Positions 2,820 to 49,935 are shown, numbered from the stretch's first letter. The stretch: DNA of 64,000 nucleotides from Dictyostelium discoideum (GCA_000004695.1 CM000150.2:2400001-2464000); one strand, 5' to 3'. Translations and numbers: made by a program. The notes: generated from the sequence alone by a model not told the origin.

Positions 2820-2919
2820 NNNNNNNNNNNNNNNNNNNNNNNNNNNNNNNNNNNNNNNNNNNNNNNNNNNNNNNNNNNNNNNNNNNNNNNNNNNNNNNNN
2901 NNNNNNNNNNNNNNNNNNN
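2820..2919. other. Assembly gap (100 N)
   Basis: A run of n characters. The flanks are retroelement ORFs on opposite strands, so the gap joins two different element copies. Confidence 0.95.
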
Positions 2920-3725
2920 GGTGGTTCGATAGGTTTTTCTGATTTTGTTTTAATTTCTTGATTGTTTATCGATTGTGTATTGATCTCATTCTCTATTCTT
3001 GTTAGTTCATCTACGTTTTCTAGTGATGCTTCTATTACCTTTTGAGCTGTATCATCTAGGGCCATAAATGTTTTATCATTAGATGAGGATGTGATTGGTG
3101 GGATAATGATTGTTCTTTTTCCTTGTTTTGGTATTTGTTCTGATGTAGATTGTGGTTGTTGTTCATCTGATTGTTTTTTATTTTTGTTTTCTTCTTGATT
3201 TTCTGGTAATGAGGTTTGATCTCTCCATCCTTTGTTGGAGTGTCCAATTAATGTTAGATTGTCTAGTTCAATGATAGTGTCAAATTCTTCTACGACTCTT
3301 TTCACTGTTTTGATAATTAGAGTTTCGCCTTTAATTTCTGATTTAATTAGTTTACATCCTTCATTTTCTATTACCCATTCTATTTCTGTGAGTGATTTAT
3401 ACCAATCAAAATCTGTATACATATTTTTTGGTCTTATAGTGGTTATAAATTGTCCTTTTAATTCTGCATCAAACATATTTACAAAATAGATTACTGTACT
3501 AATACTGTCTGTGAGAATTTTGAATGTATTATTACTTTTGATTAAAACATCTTTTTTGTCCAAACTTTTTTCTAAATCTTTTTTTATTTTATCGTCTGGT
3601 TCGTGATTGATGTTTATGACGTATTTGAATTGTTTTTTTTTTAATTGAGTTTTATCCACAATTTCGCTTATTTTTTGTAGGCATTTGTGTTGCTTAATAT
3701 TTGTGGTGTTGTTTGTGATTTTCAT
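2920..3725 (-). CDS. TRE5-A-type ORF1 (MKITNNTTNIKQHKCLQKISEIV...), C-terminal end lost in the N gap
   Basis: The same ORF recurs at 25241-25771 (C-terminal part ending ...EPPSPYNTPIK). Its first ~90 codons are also present in each B-module copy (12385-12660, 27593-27865). The track ORF 2814-3725 runs through the Ns. Confidence 0.6.
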
Positions 3726-3802
3726 TTTATTTTCTTTCTATCTTTTTTATTTTTCTTTAAAAAGTTAAAAATCTGGAAATTTTCTAATTAACTTGGTTCC
3801 CA

Positions 3803-3848
<46 letters not shown>

Positions 3849-3851
<3 letters not shown>

Positions 3852-4690
3852 TCTTTTTTATATGAAAAATGAAATAATCAAAAAAAGAGATTGTTGTTGT
3901 TGTTTGTTTTTTTCGATCTGATTATTTTTTGCTTTTTTTTTGAAAATTTTGCTACGCAAAATTCTCAAAACGAAACAAATAATAAATTACAATAAAGTAA
4001 AAAGATGGCTTTTTAAAATAGTTTATTTATTTATTTATTTGTTTTTTAAGTCTTTTTTATATGAAAAATGAAATAATCAAAAAAAGAGATTGTTGTTGTT
4101 GTTTGTTTTTTTCGATCTGATTATTTTTTGCTTTTTTTTTGAAAATTTTGCTACGCAAAATTCTCAAAACGAAACAAATAATAAATTACAATAAAGTAAA
4201 AAGATGGCTTTTTAAAATAGTTTATTTATTTATTTATTTGTTTTTTAAGTCTTTTTTATATGAAAAATGAAATAATCAAAAAAAGAGATTGTTGTTGTTG
4301 TTTGTTTTTTTCGATCTGATTATTTTTTGCTTTTTTTTTGAAAATTTTGCTACGCAAAATTCTCAAAACGAAACAAATAATAAATTACAATAAAGTAAAA
4401 AGATGGCTTTTTAAAATAGTTTATTTATTTATTTATTTGTTTTTTAAGTCTTTTTTATATGAAAAATGAAATAATCAAAAAAAGAGATTGTTGTTGTTGT
4501 TTGTTTTTTTCGATCTGATTATTTTTTGCTTTTTTTTTGAAAATTTTGCTACGCAAAATTCTCAAAACGAAACAAATAATAAATTACAATAAAGTAAAAA
4601 GATGGCTTTTTAAAATAGTTTATTTATTTATTTATTTGTTTTTTAAGTCTTTTTTATATGAAAAATGAAATAATCAAAAAAAGAGATTGA
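3849..4690. repeat. 199-bp tandem repeat, about 4.2 units (A-module array of TRE5-A)
   Basis: The unit aagtcttttttatatgaaaaatgaaataatc... restarts at 3849, 4048, 4247, 4446 and 4645 (period 199). The same unit in reverse complement is found at 12003-12290 and 24915-25250. Confidence 0.85.
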
Positions 4691-4736: not shown

Positions 4737-4808
4737 GGCTCCTTAGCATAGTGGTATTGCGCTTCCCTAGTAAGGAAGAGGTCATGAGTTCGATCCTCAT
4801 AGGAGCCT
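4737..4808 (+). tRNA. tRNA-Thr (anticodon AGU)
   Basis: GGCTCCT/AGGAGCC acceptor stem; A box TAGCATAGTGG; anticodon stem CTTCC/GGAAG with loop CTAGTAA; T arm ATGAG-TTCGATC-CTCAT (B box GGTCATGAGTTCGATCC). Folded by eye. Confidence 0.8.
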
Positions 4809-11873: not shown

Positions 11874-11960
11874 AGACCCCTCAGGGAGTTGAACCCTGGA
11901 CCAACTGCTAACTTCTTACGTTTTGGAGACAATTACAATAAACCACTATGCTAAGGAGTC
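11874..11960 (-). tRNA. tRNA-Trp (anticodon CCA) with a ~13-nt intron 3' of the anticodon loop
   Basis: RC sequence: GACTCCT TA GCATAGTGGTTTAT TGT A ATTGT CTCCAA [AACGTAAGAAGTT] A GCAGT TGGTC CAGGG TTCAACT CCCTG AGGGGTC T. The acceptor stem pairs (with one G-U). The T arm carries a B box. A TTTTTT terminator lies immediately downstream (11867-11873). Confidence 0.7.
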
Positions 11961-14176: not shown

Positions 14177-14215
14177 GACAACTTAGCAAAGTATTTTACC
14201 CATTTGATATTCGAT

Positions 14216-14296
14216 GACACCTTAGCAAAGTGGTTAATGCGGCGCCCTGCTAAGGCGTTCTCTTCGGAGGCGCAGGTTCGAACCCTGCAGGTGTCG
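14216..14296 (+). tRNA. tRNA-Ser (anticodon GCU), with a long variable arm
   Basis: GACACCT TA GCA AAGTGGTTAA TGC G GCGCC CTGCTAA GGCGT TCTCTTCGGAGGC GCAGG TTCGAAC CCTGC AGGTGTC G. The G73 discriminator is typical of tRNA-Ser. Confidence 0.85.
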
Positions 14297-14321
14297 AATT
14301 TTTAACTTCCAAACCTGAATA

Positions 14322-24753: not shown

Positions 24754-24792
24754 TATTTTATTACGTGATAAAAAAAAGATAAAAAGATAGAT

Positions 24793-24873
24793 CGACACCT
24801 GCAGGGTTCGAACCTGCGCCTCCGAAGAGAACGCCTTAGCAGGGCGCCGCATTAACCACTTTGCTAAGGTGTC
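24793..24873 (-). tRNA. tRNA-Ser (anticodon GCU), second copy
   Basis: Exact reverse complement of the 14216-14296 gene. The 5' leader cccatttggttttcgat is conserved. Confidence 0.85.
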
Positions 24874-25240
24874 ATCGAAAACCAAATGGGTAATACACTT
24901 CATTTAACCAAATGTGTAAAGGAGATCGAAAAAAAACAAACAACAACAACAATCTCTTTTTTTGATTATTTCATTTTTCATATAAAAAAGACTTAAAAAA
25001 CAAATAAATAAATAAATAAACTATCTTAAAAAGCCATCTTTTTACTTTATTGTAATTTATTATTTGTTTCGTTTTGAGAATTTTGCGTAGCAAAATTTTC
25101 AAAAAAAAGCAAAAAATAATCAGATCGAAAAAAAACAAACAACAACAACAATCTCTTTTTTTGATTATTTCATTTTTCATATAAAAAAGACTTAAAAAAC
25201 AAATAAATAAATAAATAAACTATCTTAAAAAGCCATCTTT

Positions 25241-45905: not shown

Positions 45906-46880
45906 TTATTGATTAGGATTTGAAGGTTCAGTTTCATTTGTAATTGGATTAGTTGTAGTAGGATTTTGTTGATTTGATTGATCAGGGAAAGAAGTTGTTG
46001 ATAAAGTTGATGAGGTTATTGAATCAGTGATTGAATTTGTATTATTTGTATTATTTGAATCGGTGGTTGTTGTTGTTTCACCAGAACCATCAATAATTGG
46101 ATTTAAATTATCTTTATTTTCATTGTTACTATCAATTACTTCCAAGATGAAATTATGATTTGTATAGATACAGATATCAGCTGCAATTTTCATTGATCTT
46201 CTTGCGATTTCTTCAGGATCTAAATCTGGTACGGTTAGGAGGGCACGAGCAGCAGATAATGCAAAATCACCACCACTACCAATTGCGAGGATACCATCGT
46301 TTGGTTCTAAAACGTCACCATTACCATCGATATTTAATGTGATATCTTTATCGGCTACGATTAATGATGCTTCCAATCTTCTATAGTATTTATCAGTTCT
46401 CCATTGTTGTGCTAATTCAACACAACTCTTTAAGAGTAAACCACGATGTTCTGTTAATTTTCTTTCTAATAATTCAAAGAGTGTAAATGCATCTGCAACT
46501 GATCCTGCAAAACCTGCAATGATTTTACCATCTGATAACTTTCTAATCTTTTTTGCATTTGGTTTGACAATCGAGTGACCAAGTGTAACTTGACCATCAC
46601 CAATAATAACAACTTTACCATTTCTTCTAACTGATAAAATTGTAGTTGCTTTCATTCTATATGGATCAGAATGCATTGATCCTGCACCTGCACCAAGACC
46701 CCAATATTGTGGTGGTGGAAGTGGTGCTCCACCTGTATAATATCCACTTGTACCCGAACTTAATTTACTACTTTCAACTACAACATTACTTATATTACTA
46801 TTTCCTAAATTACCAATTATTGGACTTTTTTGTAATGATGGTATTAAATATTTACTTGATAATTTTGAAAAATTAAACAT
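45906..46880 (-). CDS. hslV: HslV (ClpQ) ATP-dependent protease proteolytic subunit, mitochondrial-type, with an N-terminal presequence and a C-terminal T/N-rich extension
   Basis: ...[10 protein letters not shown]|[62 protein letters not shown]...[18 protein letters not shown]...[13 protein letters not shown]. Very close to bacterial HslV (TTIVSVRRNG..VIAGDGQ.TLG...). The catalytic Thr follows a ~75-aa presequence. Confidence 0.85.
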
Positions 46881-47180
46881 TTTTAAAATATGTTTATATT
46901 TGTAAAAAAAAAAATAAAAGAAAATGAAAATGAAAAAAAAAAAAAAAAAAAAAAAAAAATAAAATTTTCAAAAAAGTTTTTTTTTTAATTTAATTTATTT
47001 TATTTTGTTGCAGATTTCAATTATTTAAACAGTCCAAAATGTATATAAACTTTATTTTTTACCCAAAATGGTCAGATATATATTTTCAAGAAAATAGTAA
47101 ATTATCAATTTTTAAACTTTTAATTTTTGACTAATATTATTATTTATTTGATTTTTTTAAATTATTTTCAATTTCTTTAA

Positions 47181-48351
47181 TTAATTTTGTATCTTTGAAA
47201 AATCAATAACAATGCCACTTAGATGGTCAACTAAATTAATTTTAAAATTTGGACACATATTTGGTTGAATATTATAATTATTCCAATCAAAATATAAGAC
47301 ATTTAATCCAGTTGGTTCATTATTTGAATCTAATTCAATTGTTGAGTTTGGAATTAATGGTAATTGATTATCTGATTTAGGTGATAAACAATAATAATAA
47401 CAACCACCACGAGATGAATTTGAACCAATTCCATCAACTAATAAAGCAGTTTTAACACCAAAATTTATCCAATCAAATACTTTTCTTTTACAATAATTTA
47501 ATGAATCACCTTTTGATCTACATTCTAAAATAAAATGATTTGGTATTAACTTTTTAAATTTGATTTTATCATTATCATTTTCATTATAATTATCAGTATC
47601 ATTTTCATTTTCATTATCAGTTTCATAAAAAACTATATCTGGTTTCCTAAAATTTTTATTTTTTTTAGTTTTTAATTTTTATAATAATTAATTATTATTT
47701 TAATTTTTATATTATTTATAAATATAATAAATACCTAATACCAGAAGGAAGTAAATAAAATAAATTTGAATTTAAAATGAATTTACCTTTTAAATTATCT
47801 ATTGAAATTAATGAATTATTTAATTGATTATATAAATCAGAAATTTGAATATTAATATTAAATGAAATTAATCTAATATAAAGAATTGTTTTATTTAATG
47901 TTGTAATATGAAGATCTTTATTATTTGAGATTATTTTTTTAATTGATATTTGATTTGAACTAAAAAATGGTAACAAATTTGAGAAATATATAAAAGTTGA
48001 TGATGGTACTCCAATTAATGTATCATTAACAAATGAATTTCTATTTTCATTGGTTTCATTAAATTTTTTAAATTGTTTATTTGTTATTTTAAATGGTAAA
48101 TTAATTGAATATAAAAGTTTATTAAATTCATCTTCTTTTTCATTTTGTAAAATAATTTTATCATAATCAAAATCATTACTATTATTAATTATTTCATATC
48201 CTTTACTATATTGATTTGAAAAAACTAAAATTAAATTAATTAATAATAATTTTTTTTTTTTTTCATACAAAACAAATAACAAAAGAAATACTTTACAAAA
48301 TTTAATTTTTTTAATTATTCTTTTAAATTTAAATATTATCTTTTTACACAT
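47181..48351 (-). CDS. Uma2-family (DUF820) PD-(D/E)xK nuclease-like protein. Two exons: complement(join(47181..47646,47735..48351)).
   Basis: Exon 2 encodes ..RKPDIVFYETDN...KKLIPNHFILECRSKGDSLNYCKRKVFDWINFGVKTALLVDGIG.., matching the Uma2 pattern (PD..v.E..S......K...Y...GV.EYW.vD). Intron 47647-47734 (donor ag|gtattt, acceptor ttttag). Exon 1 is N-rich with no recognisable domain. Confidence 0.5.
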
Positions 48352-48674
48352 TCTATAACTTGTATTCTTAATTAAAATAAAAAAAAATAATTTTAAATTT
48401 ATTTTTATATATTATTTTTTTTTTTTTTTGTAATTTAAAAAGAAAGATCAAAAATTGGTTTTTTTTTTTTTTTATACTTTTTAAGTATTTTTTTTTTTTT
48501 GGAAATTAAAATTAAATGTTGAAAATAAATAAAATCAATAAAAGGAAATTTTTTTAAATCGAAATTTTAAAGATATTTTTTTATTTTTATTTTATAATTT
48601 TATAATACAAGTTCCTTTTTTATATTTTTTTTTTTTTGTTACAAAAAAAAAAATAAAAAAAATAAAATAATTGA

Positions 48675-48908
48675 TCAATCTCTAACCCTTGAAAAAACAA
48701 CGATGATTACAACCAAGGTTATCATAATTAAGATACAGGCAAAAATTAAAAGACAGTTTTTTTTAATACACAATGATACTGATAATTGCTCTTCTTTTAT
48801 TTCTTTGAAATCGGTTCCACTTTCATTTGAAACATCCAATGAAATTATATCATTTTTGTTTATAACAGTATTATTTTTTTCTTTTTCAATTTCAATAATT
48901 TCACCCAT
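48675..48908 (-). CDS. Possible small tail-anchored membrane protein (77 aa)
   Basis: Acidic N-terminus and a single C-terminal hydrophobic segment LLIFACILIMITLVVIIVVF. No other support. Confidence 0.25.
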   Translation of the reverse strand: MGEIIEIEKEKNNTVINKNDIISLDVSNESGTDFKEIKEEQLSVSLCIKKNCLLIFACILIMITLVVIIVVFSRVRD

Positions 48909-49020
48909 TTCCTTTTTTTTTTTTTTTTTTTTTTTTTTTCTTTTTAAGAATTATTTTATTAAAAATTGTTTTTTTTAATTATTTATTAATTGTTTGGTTG
49001 TAATTAAATTTAAATTTTTT

Positions 49021-49145
<125 letters not shown>

Positions 49146-49935
49146 ATTATTAATATTATTTTAAAAATAAAAATTAAATAATAAAATAAAAAATAAGGAC
49201 AATAAATAAATAAAAAAAAATAAAATAAAATAAAACAAAATAAAAAAAAAAAAAAAAAAAAAAAAAAAGTAGTTTTGAATCTTTTTGAAGGTGATTGGTT
49301 TTTGTGTGAATGGTAATCATTTTTTTTATTTTGTAGAGTTAATTCAAATGGGAGTTATAAAAATATATTTTTTATTATTATTTTTTTTATTTTTATTATT
49401 TTTATTATTTTATTTTATACGAAAGGAATATTAGATGGCAAAAGAAATCAATGATTTTAGTTTGAGTAGGACAATTTGTGTGTTAGAAATGTATAAAAGT
49501 ACAAAAAACTAACACACACACCATGTGTTTTTTTGATTGAAAGATTCAATCACAATTTGAGTTTTAAAAGAAAATCACAAAATATTATGTTTTTATTTTT
49601 ATTTTTTTTTTTTTCTAACCACTTTTACACCCCTAATCAAATAGATTTATCATTATAAAACTGTTCTTTTATTATTTTTTTTATTTTTTTAAAAAATAAA
49701 CAATTTAAATTTTCCTTTCTATACTAATATTATTTCCTTTTTTTTTTATTTATAATTATTTTTTGGAAAAGTCAAACTTAATAGATTAATTATTATTATT
49801 ATAATTATAATTATTATTTTTATTATATTGTTATATTAATTATTTGTTATAATTATATATAAATTAATTTTATTTTAAATTTTAAATTTTTTTTTTATTT
49901 TTATTTTTTTTTTTTTAAAATTATTTTAATTTTAT

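Follow-up and report, generated by a model that had tools for sequence, protein, structure and literature searches.

The locus described here raises the question of how a gene whose product recalls a bacterial nuclease family comes to stand in a eukaryotic chromosome, and what it does there. It lies in a 64,000-nucleotide stretch of Dictyostelium discoideum chromosome 1 (GCA_000004695.1 CM000150.2:2400001-2464000; hereafter the window), which has a G+C content of 24.5% and to which all coordinates refer unless otherwise stated. The gene occupies positions 47181-48351 of the minus strand and corresponds to the core of D. discoideum DDB_G0270468; an exact look-up places its product in the cluster XP_645846.1 / DDB_G0270468 / Q55ED5. 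Databases name this product “hypothetical protein” or “uncharacterized protein” with no domain assigned, and the literature searched held no paper on DDB_G0270468 or Q55ED5. A preliminary description of the window, made from the sequence, had proposed an intron-containing gene of the Uma2 (DUF820) family of PD-(D/E)xK nuclease-like proteins. The peptide strings it quoted (RKPDIVFYE, ILECRSKGD and KRKVFDWINFGVKTALLVD) all recur in the minus-strand translation, as do its ATG (48351-48349) and its TAA stop codon (47183-47181). The best explanation overall, to which we give a probability of roughly three in four, is that DDB_G0270468 is a spliced dictyostelid gene of the Uma2 branch of the PD-(D/E)xK proteins and an ancient acquisition. 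We are highly confident of the identity of the gene and of its assignment to Uma2; its product is likely to be a highly divergent member of a dictyostelid-specific subfamily.

A profile built from four orthologues was searched against 1.84 billion representative proteins. Seven proteins matched at E<1e-3, every one of them dictyostelid or from EukProt, and no bacterial protein in this database reached that value. The matches include F0ZKV2 of D. purpureum (1e-25), DLAC_07617 and DLAC_00546 of Tieghemostelium lacteum (9e-11 and 2e-4), a second D. discoideum gene (2.6e-6) and one unidentified EukProt protein. The relatives P0006, P0007, P0010 and P0011 score above the Pfam Uma2 cut-off of 27 bits (30.9-42.7 bits), the individual values being 30.9 for F0ZKV2, 40.4 for DLAC_07617, 42.7 for DLAC_00546 and 33.5 for the D. 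discoideum paralogue. When seven family sequences were combined, the resulting profile matched four PDB entries, 1wdj (Thermus TT1808; E=6.2e-12), 6okh (6.6e-5), 9y1l and 3ot2, all of which are Uma2/DUF820 structures. Alignment of the dictyostelid family with an independent cyanobacterial Uma2 alignment by hhalign gave 97.8% (E=1.2e-12, 150 columns) and paired residues from DLHITT onward with Uma2. Dictyostelid and bacterial members share 17-20% identity; judged by these comparisons, the resemblance to Uma2 exceeds chance.

In COG4636, as the family is also called, the active site has been written “PD-EXX-K,” with the Asp and Glu practically invariant and the Lys migrated to the helix that follows the Glu strand (Feder & Bujnicki 2005, PMC551604). 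The same study describes “PD-EXK-K” and “PD-EXR-K” variants, in which the classical position is also basic and another residue stands in place of the usual His. The corresponding features of the DDB_G0270468 product are as follows.

47637..47642, minus strand: P184-D185, the “PD,” aligning with the PD of TT1808 and of cyanobacterial Uma2
47556..47621, minus strand: insertion TDNENENDTDNYNENDNDKIKF, acidic and rich in Asn, separating the PD strand from the E-x-R-S strand, with a predicted local distance difference test score (pLDDT) <50
47514..47525, minus strand: E223-C-R225-S226, the “EXR” half-motif, aligning with EVRS of TT1808, with Arg at the classical Lys position
47481..47483, minus strand: K237, the “migrated” Lys, aligning with the K of “KM” in TT1808 and the K of cyanobacterial Uma2
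47433..47462, minus strand: NFGVKTALLVD, counterpart of the Uma2 “GV.EYWlVD” strand, with G245 and D253 invariant

Residues D185, E223 and K237, together with R225, are kept in all four orthologues, and E223, S226, K237, G245 and D253 are invariant across the dictyostelid family; the predicted PD-EXR-K pattern is thus intact in the alignment. The acidic insertion varies among the four orthologues in sequence and in length, always by a multiple of three nucleotides. In a functional enzyme D185 and E223 would bind a divalent metal, and a “PD-EXR-K” site like that of TT1808 would be completed by R225, which occupies the classical Lys position, and by K237 on the next helix. On the model proposed for COG4636, K237 (with R225) might act as the general base or stabilise the transition state, and the product would cleave a phosphodiester bond in nucleic acid. 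Whether nuclease activity has been retained in the DDB_G0270468 product is an evenly balanced question.

An AlphaFold2 model computed from 122 sequences, bacterial Uma2 included, reached a pLDDT of 56 and a predicted template modelling score of 0.50, with the catalytic core at ~70-77. Foldseek with this model returned Uma2 structures as its top seven matches, the next match standing at E=0.29, and the predicted core has the restriction-endonuclease-like (PD-(D/E)xK) fold. Pfam, hhalign and AlphaFold2 agree in placing a hairpin at LHITTLNKTILYI. The modelled fold corroborates the sequence evidence and is not independent of it.

Comparison of genomic sequences supports a gene that is nuclear, spliced and divided into three exons or more. 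The model given below (48351-48297, 48224-47735, 47646-47181) translates exactly to the annotated protein P0001 of 336 amino acids.

48297..48351, minus strand: exon 1, MCKKIIFKFKRIIKKIKF plus 1 nt; best-supported model, 5′ end uncertain
48225..48296, minus strand: intron 1, 72 bp, GTAAAG...TTTTAG; spliced out in the P0001 and P0004 models
47735..48224, minus strand: exon 2, N-terminal half of the Uma2 domain, preceded by the dictyostelid-specific extension (LPFKITNKQFKKF...VPSSTF..LLPFF)
47647..47734, minus strand: intron 2, 88 bp, phase 2, GTATTT..TTTTAG, 3.4% G+C, within the Arg182 codon
47181..47646, minus strand: exon 3, catalytic half of the Uma2 domain, C-terminal strands and stop; aligns to 1wdj and 6okh

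Intron 2 lies two residues ahead of the PD motif, after the “ag” of an AGG (Arg) codon. Its removal joins the frames as LLPSGI-R-KPDIVFYE, and without splicing a stop is met after seven further codons. The Uma2 part of exon 2 comprises the LHITTLNKTILYIRL hairpin, one helix and two strands.

The DNA comparison covered the window, D. citrinum, D. cf. discoideum and a second D. discoideum assembly, and the lengths of the gene's parts in these four genomes are listed here.

Exon 1: 55, 55, 58 and 58 bp, differing by multiples of three only
Intron 1: 72, 77, 72 and 91 bp, not differing by multiples of three; 60% identity to D. citrinum
Exon 2: 490, 484, 496 and 490 bp, differing by multiples of three only; 88-98% identity
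Intron 2: 88, 370, 159 and 91 bp, with GT and AG kept
Exon 3: 466, 484, 439 and 469 bp, differing by multiples of three only

The ATG and GTA donor of exon 1 are kept in all four, with one in-frame 3-nt indel. The order of a ~500-amino-acid gene, DDB_G0270468, an HslV-like gene and a ~320-amino-acid gene is likewise the same in each. Substitutions relative to D. citrinum fall on codon positions 1, 2 and 3 in the numbers 30, 21 and 57, the ratio of nonsynonymous to synonymous substitution rates (dN/dS) is 0.37, and the proteins share 81% identity; from the third-position excess and the dN/dS value, the frame is under purifying, though not strong, selection. In D. citrinum intron 2 has grown from 88 to ~370 bp, nearly all of it (AAT)n microsatellite, and in D. 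cf. discoideum it measures 159 bp.

The same intron speaks to the age of the gene, for it occurs at an identical position and in phase 2 in five dictyostelid genes. The T. lacteum part of this comparison covered P0011 and P0015 (DLAC_00546 and DLAC_09083).

D. discoideum DDB_G0270468: junction SGI-R-KPD, intron 88 bp
T. lacteum DLAC_00546: junction NLV-Y-SPD, intron 59 bp
T. lacteum DLAC_09083: junction SAI-Y-RPN, intron 59 bp
Heterostelium album PPL_08194 (P0016): junction NAH-Y-RPD, intron 56 bp
D. purpureum DICPUDRAFT_152247: junction GYE-R-KPE

At the level of sequence, shared position and phase are stronger support for an intron than splice-site consensus alone. The family was therefore an intron-bearing nuclear gene already in the common ancestor of Heterostelium, Tieghemostelium and Dictyostelium, and any transfer from bacteria must be older than that ancestor. 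Several statements of the preliminary description can be judged against these comparisons. Its 88-bp GT..AG spliceosomal intron is borne out by exon indels in multiples of three, a variable intron and the shared position and phase, and its view of a bona fide eukaryotic gene by synteny in four genomes and the dN/dS of 0.37. The single first exon of 617 nt has to be given up, as it contains the 72-bp intron at 48296..48225; since 72 is a multiple of three, reading through this intron remains open in the window. Nor is that exon just the N-rich N-terminal piece it was taken for, since half of the Uma2 domain, the N-terminal one, is also encoded in it.

The 5′ end of DDB_G0270468 is uncertain, and four published models conflict there. 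P0001 and P0004 begin with MCKK...KIKF followed by a 72-bp intron; in P0002 and P0003 a long intron comes after MGEII...SVSL, an exon lying upstream; P0013 is the four-exon AX4 annotation; and the fourth version is the uninterrupted exon of the preliminary description. The upstream sequence in question is an open reading frame (ORF) of 77 amino acids.

48675..48908, minus strand: 77-amino-acid ORF, MGEIIEIEKEKNN...CLLIFACILIMITLVVIIVVFSRVRD (MGEII...), with one predicted membrane helix

This ORF is wholly or partly fused to DDB_G0270468 in P0002, P0003 and P0013, and also in P0008, from another species. Two other Dictyostelium genomes keep it as far as its own stop codon, the substitutions by codon position being 4/1/10 and 2/1/7. 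No membrane-helix leader of this kind occurs in P0006, P0007, P0011, P0012, P0015 or P0016, the members of the family whose N-terminus is intact. Because its own stop codon is kept and family members are without such a leader, the ORF is unlikely to be the true first exon of DDB_G0270468; its pattern of conservation suggests that it is probably a separate small membrane-protein gene. Short Logan contigs carrying the unspliced ORF P0005 were considered as splicing evidence and set aside as uninformative, since they follow the genome collinearly, break off at homopolymer runs and so are silent on splicing. The A/T homopolymer runs that flank these contigs of the locus lie at ~46925-46960 and ~48620-48650.

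Members of the subfamily were recovered from Dictyostelium, Tieghemostelium and Heterostelium in ~1-3 copies per genome: T. lacteum yielded three, D. purpureum one and H. album a single truncated copy, and D. discoideum a paralogue in addition to DDB_G0270468. Within the window there is one copy only and no further paralogue. The hallmarks of the subfamily are an N-terminal extension of ~65 residues, a variable acidic insertion in the hairpin that links the PD and Glu strands, and the shared phase-2 intron before PD. The extension follows the pattern LP(F/W)xIS..(F/Y).KF ... (V/I)P.(S/A)T.I.(F/L)S.L(L/F)P and has no match to Uma2 or in PDB. The idea that it is a duplicated Uma2 N-terminus (“KYIDHHCIEVP” resembling “yELidGeivM”) was rejected, hhalign giving 0.1% and PDB no match. 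The C-terminal loops are longer than those of bacterial Uma2, and the motifs C-YYYC, LPLIP.S and W.N...P..I are conserved in them. F0ZKV2, DLAC_00546, DLAC_07617 and DLAC_09083 belong to the same subfamily as DDB_G0270468, having in common with it the LP(F/W)xIS..F.KF extension, E-x-(R/K)-S...K-M..WI..GV and W.N...P..I; F0ZKV2, DLAC_00546 and DLAC_09083 also have the phase-2 intron before PD (DLAC_07617 stood outside the intron comparison). The dictyostelid relatives that pass Pfam are named “Putative restriction endonuclease domain-containing protein” in UniProt, whereas the discoideum-group orthologues, DDB_G0270468 included, fall below the cut-off, carry Thr in place of the hairpin Glu and are “hypothetical.”

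Some of these relatives deserve separate mention. The D. discoideum paralogue P0012 (323 amino acids; GCA_054859385.1, L006 3001-3972) is intronless, and a shorter form of it, P0010, passes Pfam Uma2; the conserved intron is present in the nearest relative from D. purpureum, which suggests that the paralogue lost it or arose as a retro-copy. That relative, DICPUDRAFT_152247 (P0006, 217 amino acids; L013 GL871060.1, ~3001-3917), resembles the intronless paralogue more closely than it does DDB_G0270468 and does not lie beside HslV. Its published model omits ~65 conserved residues (YNKNLNIEYYSNSIIYIKE...LLPNGYE). The genomic sequence encodes them in an open frame that runs to a GTAA donor where the family has its intron, and the model is therefore probably mis-spliced. 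PPL_08194 of H. album (P0016; L007 GL290990.1, ~2900-3448) has the N-terminal half of the family and the conserved intron. Its frame ends 26 residues past the RPD motif, and tblastn downstream of it found no E-x-R-S/K half. It is apparently a truncated or decaying copy.

Several results weigh against reading DDB_G0270468 as an anciently acquired Uma2 nuclease. In hmmscan with the single protein, Uma2 (PF05685) is the top Pfam family, but at 15.2-15.4 bits (E=0.016) it remains below the cut-off of 27. The HMMER search with PF05685 that the preliminary description had suggested thus fails for the protein by itself, and the Uma2/DUF820 PD-(D/E)xK-like assignment made there stands at the level of the family (1wdj at 6.2e-12, hhalign at 97.8%). 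Exon 3 alone had no match in Pfam, nor had the whole product in NCBIfam. The orthologue-only profile gave just 13.6% in hhalign against bacterial Uma2, which is uninformative. AlphaFold2 with nine sequences (eight dictyostelid rows and the bacterial Uma2 protein P0017) produced an unusable model (pLDDT 42), and the fold match obtained with 122 sequences is partly circular because that alignment contained bacterial Uma2 sequences. In the four discoideum-group orthologues the “ELxDG” hairpin has Thr where Uma2 has Glu (HITTLN). No clear conservation is seen at the usual His position, where the alignment is of low confidence; for reference, this residue is H43 of all3650, or Ser/Thr in EX(K/R)-K variants. 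A semi-conserved Gln lies near the His region in the dictyostelid family (IQIS, TQSA, RQNG; again in low-confidence alignment), and substitution of Gln at the His position is described for one small bacterial lineage (PMC551604). The literature searched contains no demonstrated activity for any Uma2 protein, so that “nuclease” is a prediction for the whole family. Both introns and the 5′ end are predictions from genome comparison, and a bacterial origin, which the preliminary description had raised as possible, is a plausible proposal, a single ancient transfer from a bacterium to dictyostelids being the simplest reading.

The hairpin lends itself to another explanation, namely that the product is a domesticated, catalytically dead Uma2 fold acting as a nucleic-acid- or protein-binding module. 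Thr replaces Glu in all four discoideum-group orthologues, whereas paralogues and T. lacteum proteins keep IET or VEL at the hairpin; the Pfam score is weak, constraint is fairly relaxed at a dN/dS of 0.37, and members have lost parts (P0009 has SN in place of PD, and the H. album copy stops soon after it). We nevertheless consider this explanation unlikely, given the retention of D185, E223, K237 and R225 in all four orthologues and of the Glu, Ser, Lys, Gly and Asp family-wide. The hairpin Glu is outside the near-invariant residues of COG4636, of which only Asp and Glu of the site are practically invariant (PMC551604), so it is not required and the Thr substitution alone is therefore no prediction of inactivity. 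Far less probable is a decaying pseudogene or an annotation artefact, that is, a chance ORF in A+T-rich DNA with a fortuitous motif match. The four incompatible 5′ gene models would agree with it, as would the Logan contigs with the ORF, which are unspliced genomic pieces; yet the frame is kept in four genomes with indels in multiples of three only, shows the third-position excess, the dN/dS of 0.37 and the 81% protein identity to D. citrinum, and has homologues at E=1e-25 in D. purpureum and 9e-11 in T. lacteum.

The composition of the family might suggest a recent bacterial insertion or a contaminant. In 2005, 382 of 435 Uma2 members were cyanobacterial (PMC551604), a 2012 survey of the superfamily found Uma2 in Bacteria only (Steczkiewicz 2012), and when we searched with the family alignment supplemented with bacterial P0017, the best 120 listed of 1691 matches were, dictyostelids aside, Pfam-Uma2, the named ones cyanobacterial. 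DDB_G0270468 itself points the other way: its exons have a G+C content of 14-23%, close to that of the surroundings, it has two spliceosomal introns and the same neighbours in four genomes, one intron is common to Heterostelium and Tieghemostelium, and the orthologue profile, searched against 1.84e9 proteins, matched no bacterial one at E<1e-3. The shared intron and conserved gene order effectively refute a recent arrival. The reading of DDB_G0270468 as an ancient dictyostelid Uma2 gene would imply the following history: one acquisition from bacteria before the dictyostelid groups diverged, and then intron gain, addition of the extension and duplication. The dictyostelid proteins form one lineage insofar as derived features (extension, intron, C-terminal motifs) are shared. 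In one survey the sole fungal Uma2 case is a single Trichophyton protein, and the deep branches of Uma2 were left unresolved in the 2005 study (PMC551604). A search of the literature for Dictyostelium together with horizontal transfer and “putative restriction endonuclease” returned nothing.

Beyond this, it is conceivable, if rather doubtful, that a bacterial Uma2 “solo toxin” or selfish nuclease was captured early and domesticated, acquiring an intron, a new N-terminal domain and paralogues, for a eukaryote-specific role such as degradation of nucleic acid from bacterial prey, defence against endosymbionts or mobile DNA, or a self/non-self toxin. Were this so, the tractable Dictyostelium would offer a first handle on the function of Uma2/DUF820, a family that numbers thousands of copies in cyanobacteria and ranks among the largest PD-(D/E)xK families still uncharacterised. 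As matters stand, a D. discoideum gene that carried no annotation is assigned to Uma2, and the shared intron shows that dictyostelids already had the family before the split of Heterostelium, Tieghemostelium and Dictyostelium and have kept it since. The eukaryotic subfamily is small and tractable, with knock-outs and active-site mutants easily made, and inconsistent or wrong gene models are flagged at the 5′ end of DDB_G0270468, in DICPUDRAFT_152247 and in PPL_08194. Nothing is overturned, related dictyostelid proteins being already labelled Uma2 in UniProt; we see here a neat example of a “bacterial” nuclease-like gene resident since ancient times, a modest curiosity rather than a new kind of system.

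The downstream neighbour of DDB_G0270468, at 45906-46880 of the minus strand, is a single-ORF HslV-like protease subunit of 324 amino acids that is extended at the N-terminus and ends in a Thr/Asn-rich tail. Orthologues of it in the three other genomes match Pfam PF00227 (Proteasome) and likewise adjoin the Uma2-like gene. A long trinucleotide-type simple repeat at 48994-49164, upstream of the 77-amino-acid ORF, reads as poly-Leu or poly-Tyr in two frames. ARAGORN called four tRNAs in the window (4737-4808, 11874-11960, 14215-14297 and 24792-24874), namely Thr-AGT, Leu-CAA and two Ser-GCT on opposite strands.

Among known systems the nearest structural reference is TT1808 of T. thermophilus (PDB 1wdj), a bacterial Uma2/DUF820/COG4636 protein of 187 residues without extension or insertions, whose structure the 2005 study of COG4636 takes up. 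It shares the PD-EXR-K spelling with the DDB_G0270468 product (EVRS...KM). The latter differs in its ~65-residue extension and leader, an acidic insertion of 20-30 residues, introns and longer C-terminal loops (CYYYC..LPLIPNS..W.N), and the two are ~17-18% identical. Cyanobacterial Uma2 proteins (e.g., all3650 of Nostoc; P0017-P0130) have a homologous domain, P0017 and its relatives reading E-I-K-S...K, i.e., PD-EXK-K, the sister spelling of EXR-K. The family profile scores TT1808 at 48 bits versus 38 for P0017, both being of the EX(K/R)-K variant. PDC-S03 models of PADLOC match the bacterial P0017, and PADLOC gave no match on the dictyostelid proteins. Archaeal Hjc/Hje and type II restriction enzymes carry the Lys at the classical D-x-K/E-x-K position and are without sequence-level similarity; their relationship is at the level of the PD-(D/E)xK superfamily, not of the family. 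The bacterial Uma2 has been called a “likely solo toxin” by Makarova et al. (PMC2701414), and the cyanobacterial genes, hugely expanded to as much as 2% of the genes in Gloeobacter, are read as selfish elements in the 2005 study (PMC551604). Dictyostelids, in contrast, have ~1-3 recovered copies in ordinary gene neighbourhoods; with a eukaryotic host, few copies and a syntenic locus, their genes are therefore homologous to the cyanobacterial expansions but unlike them in behaviour.

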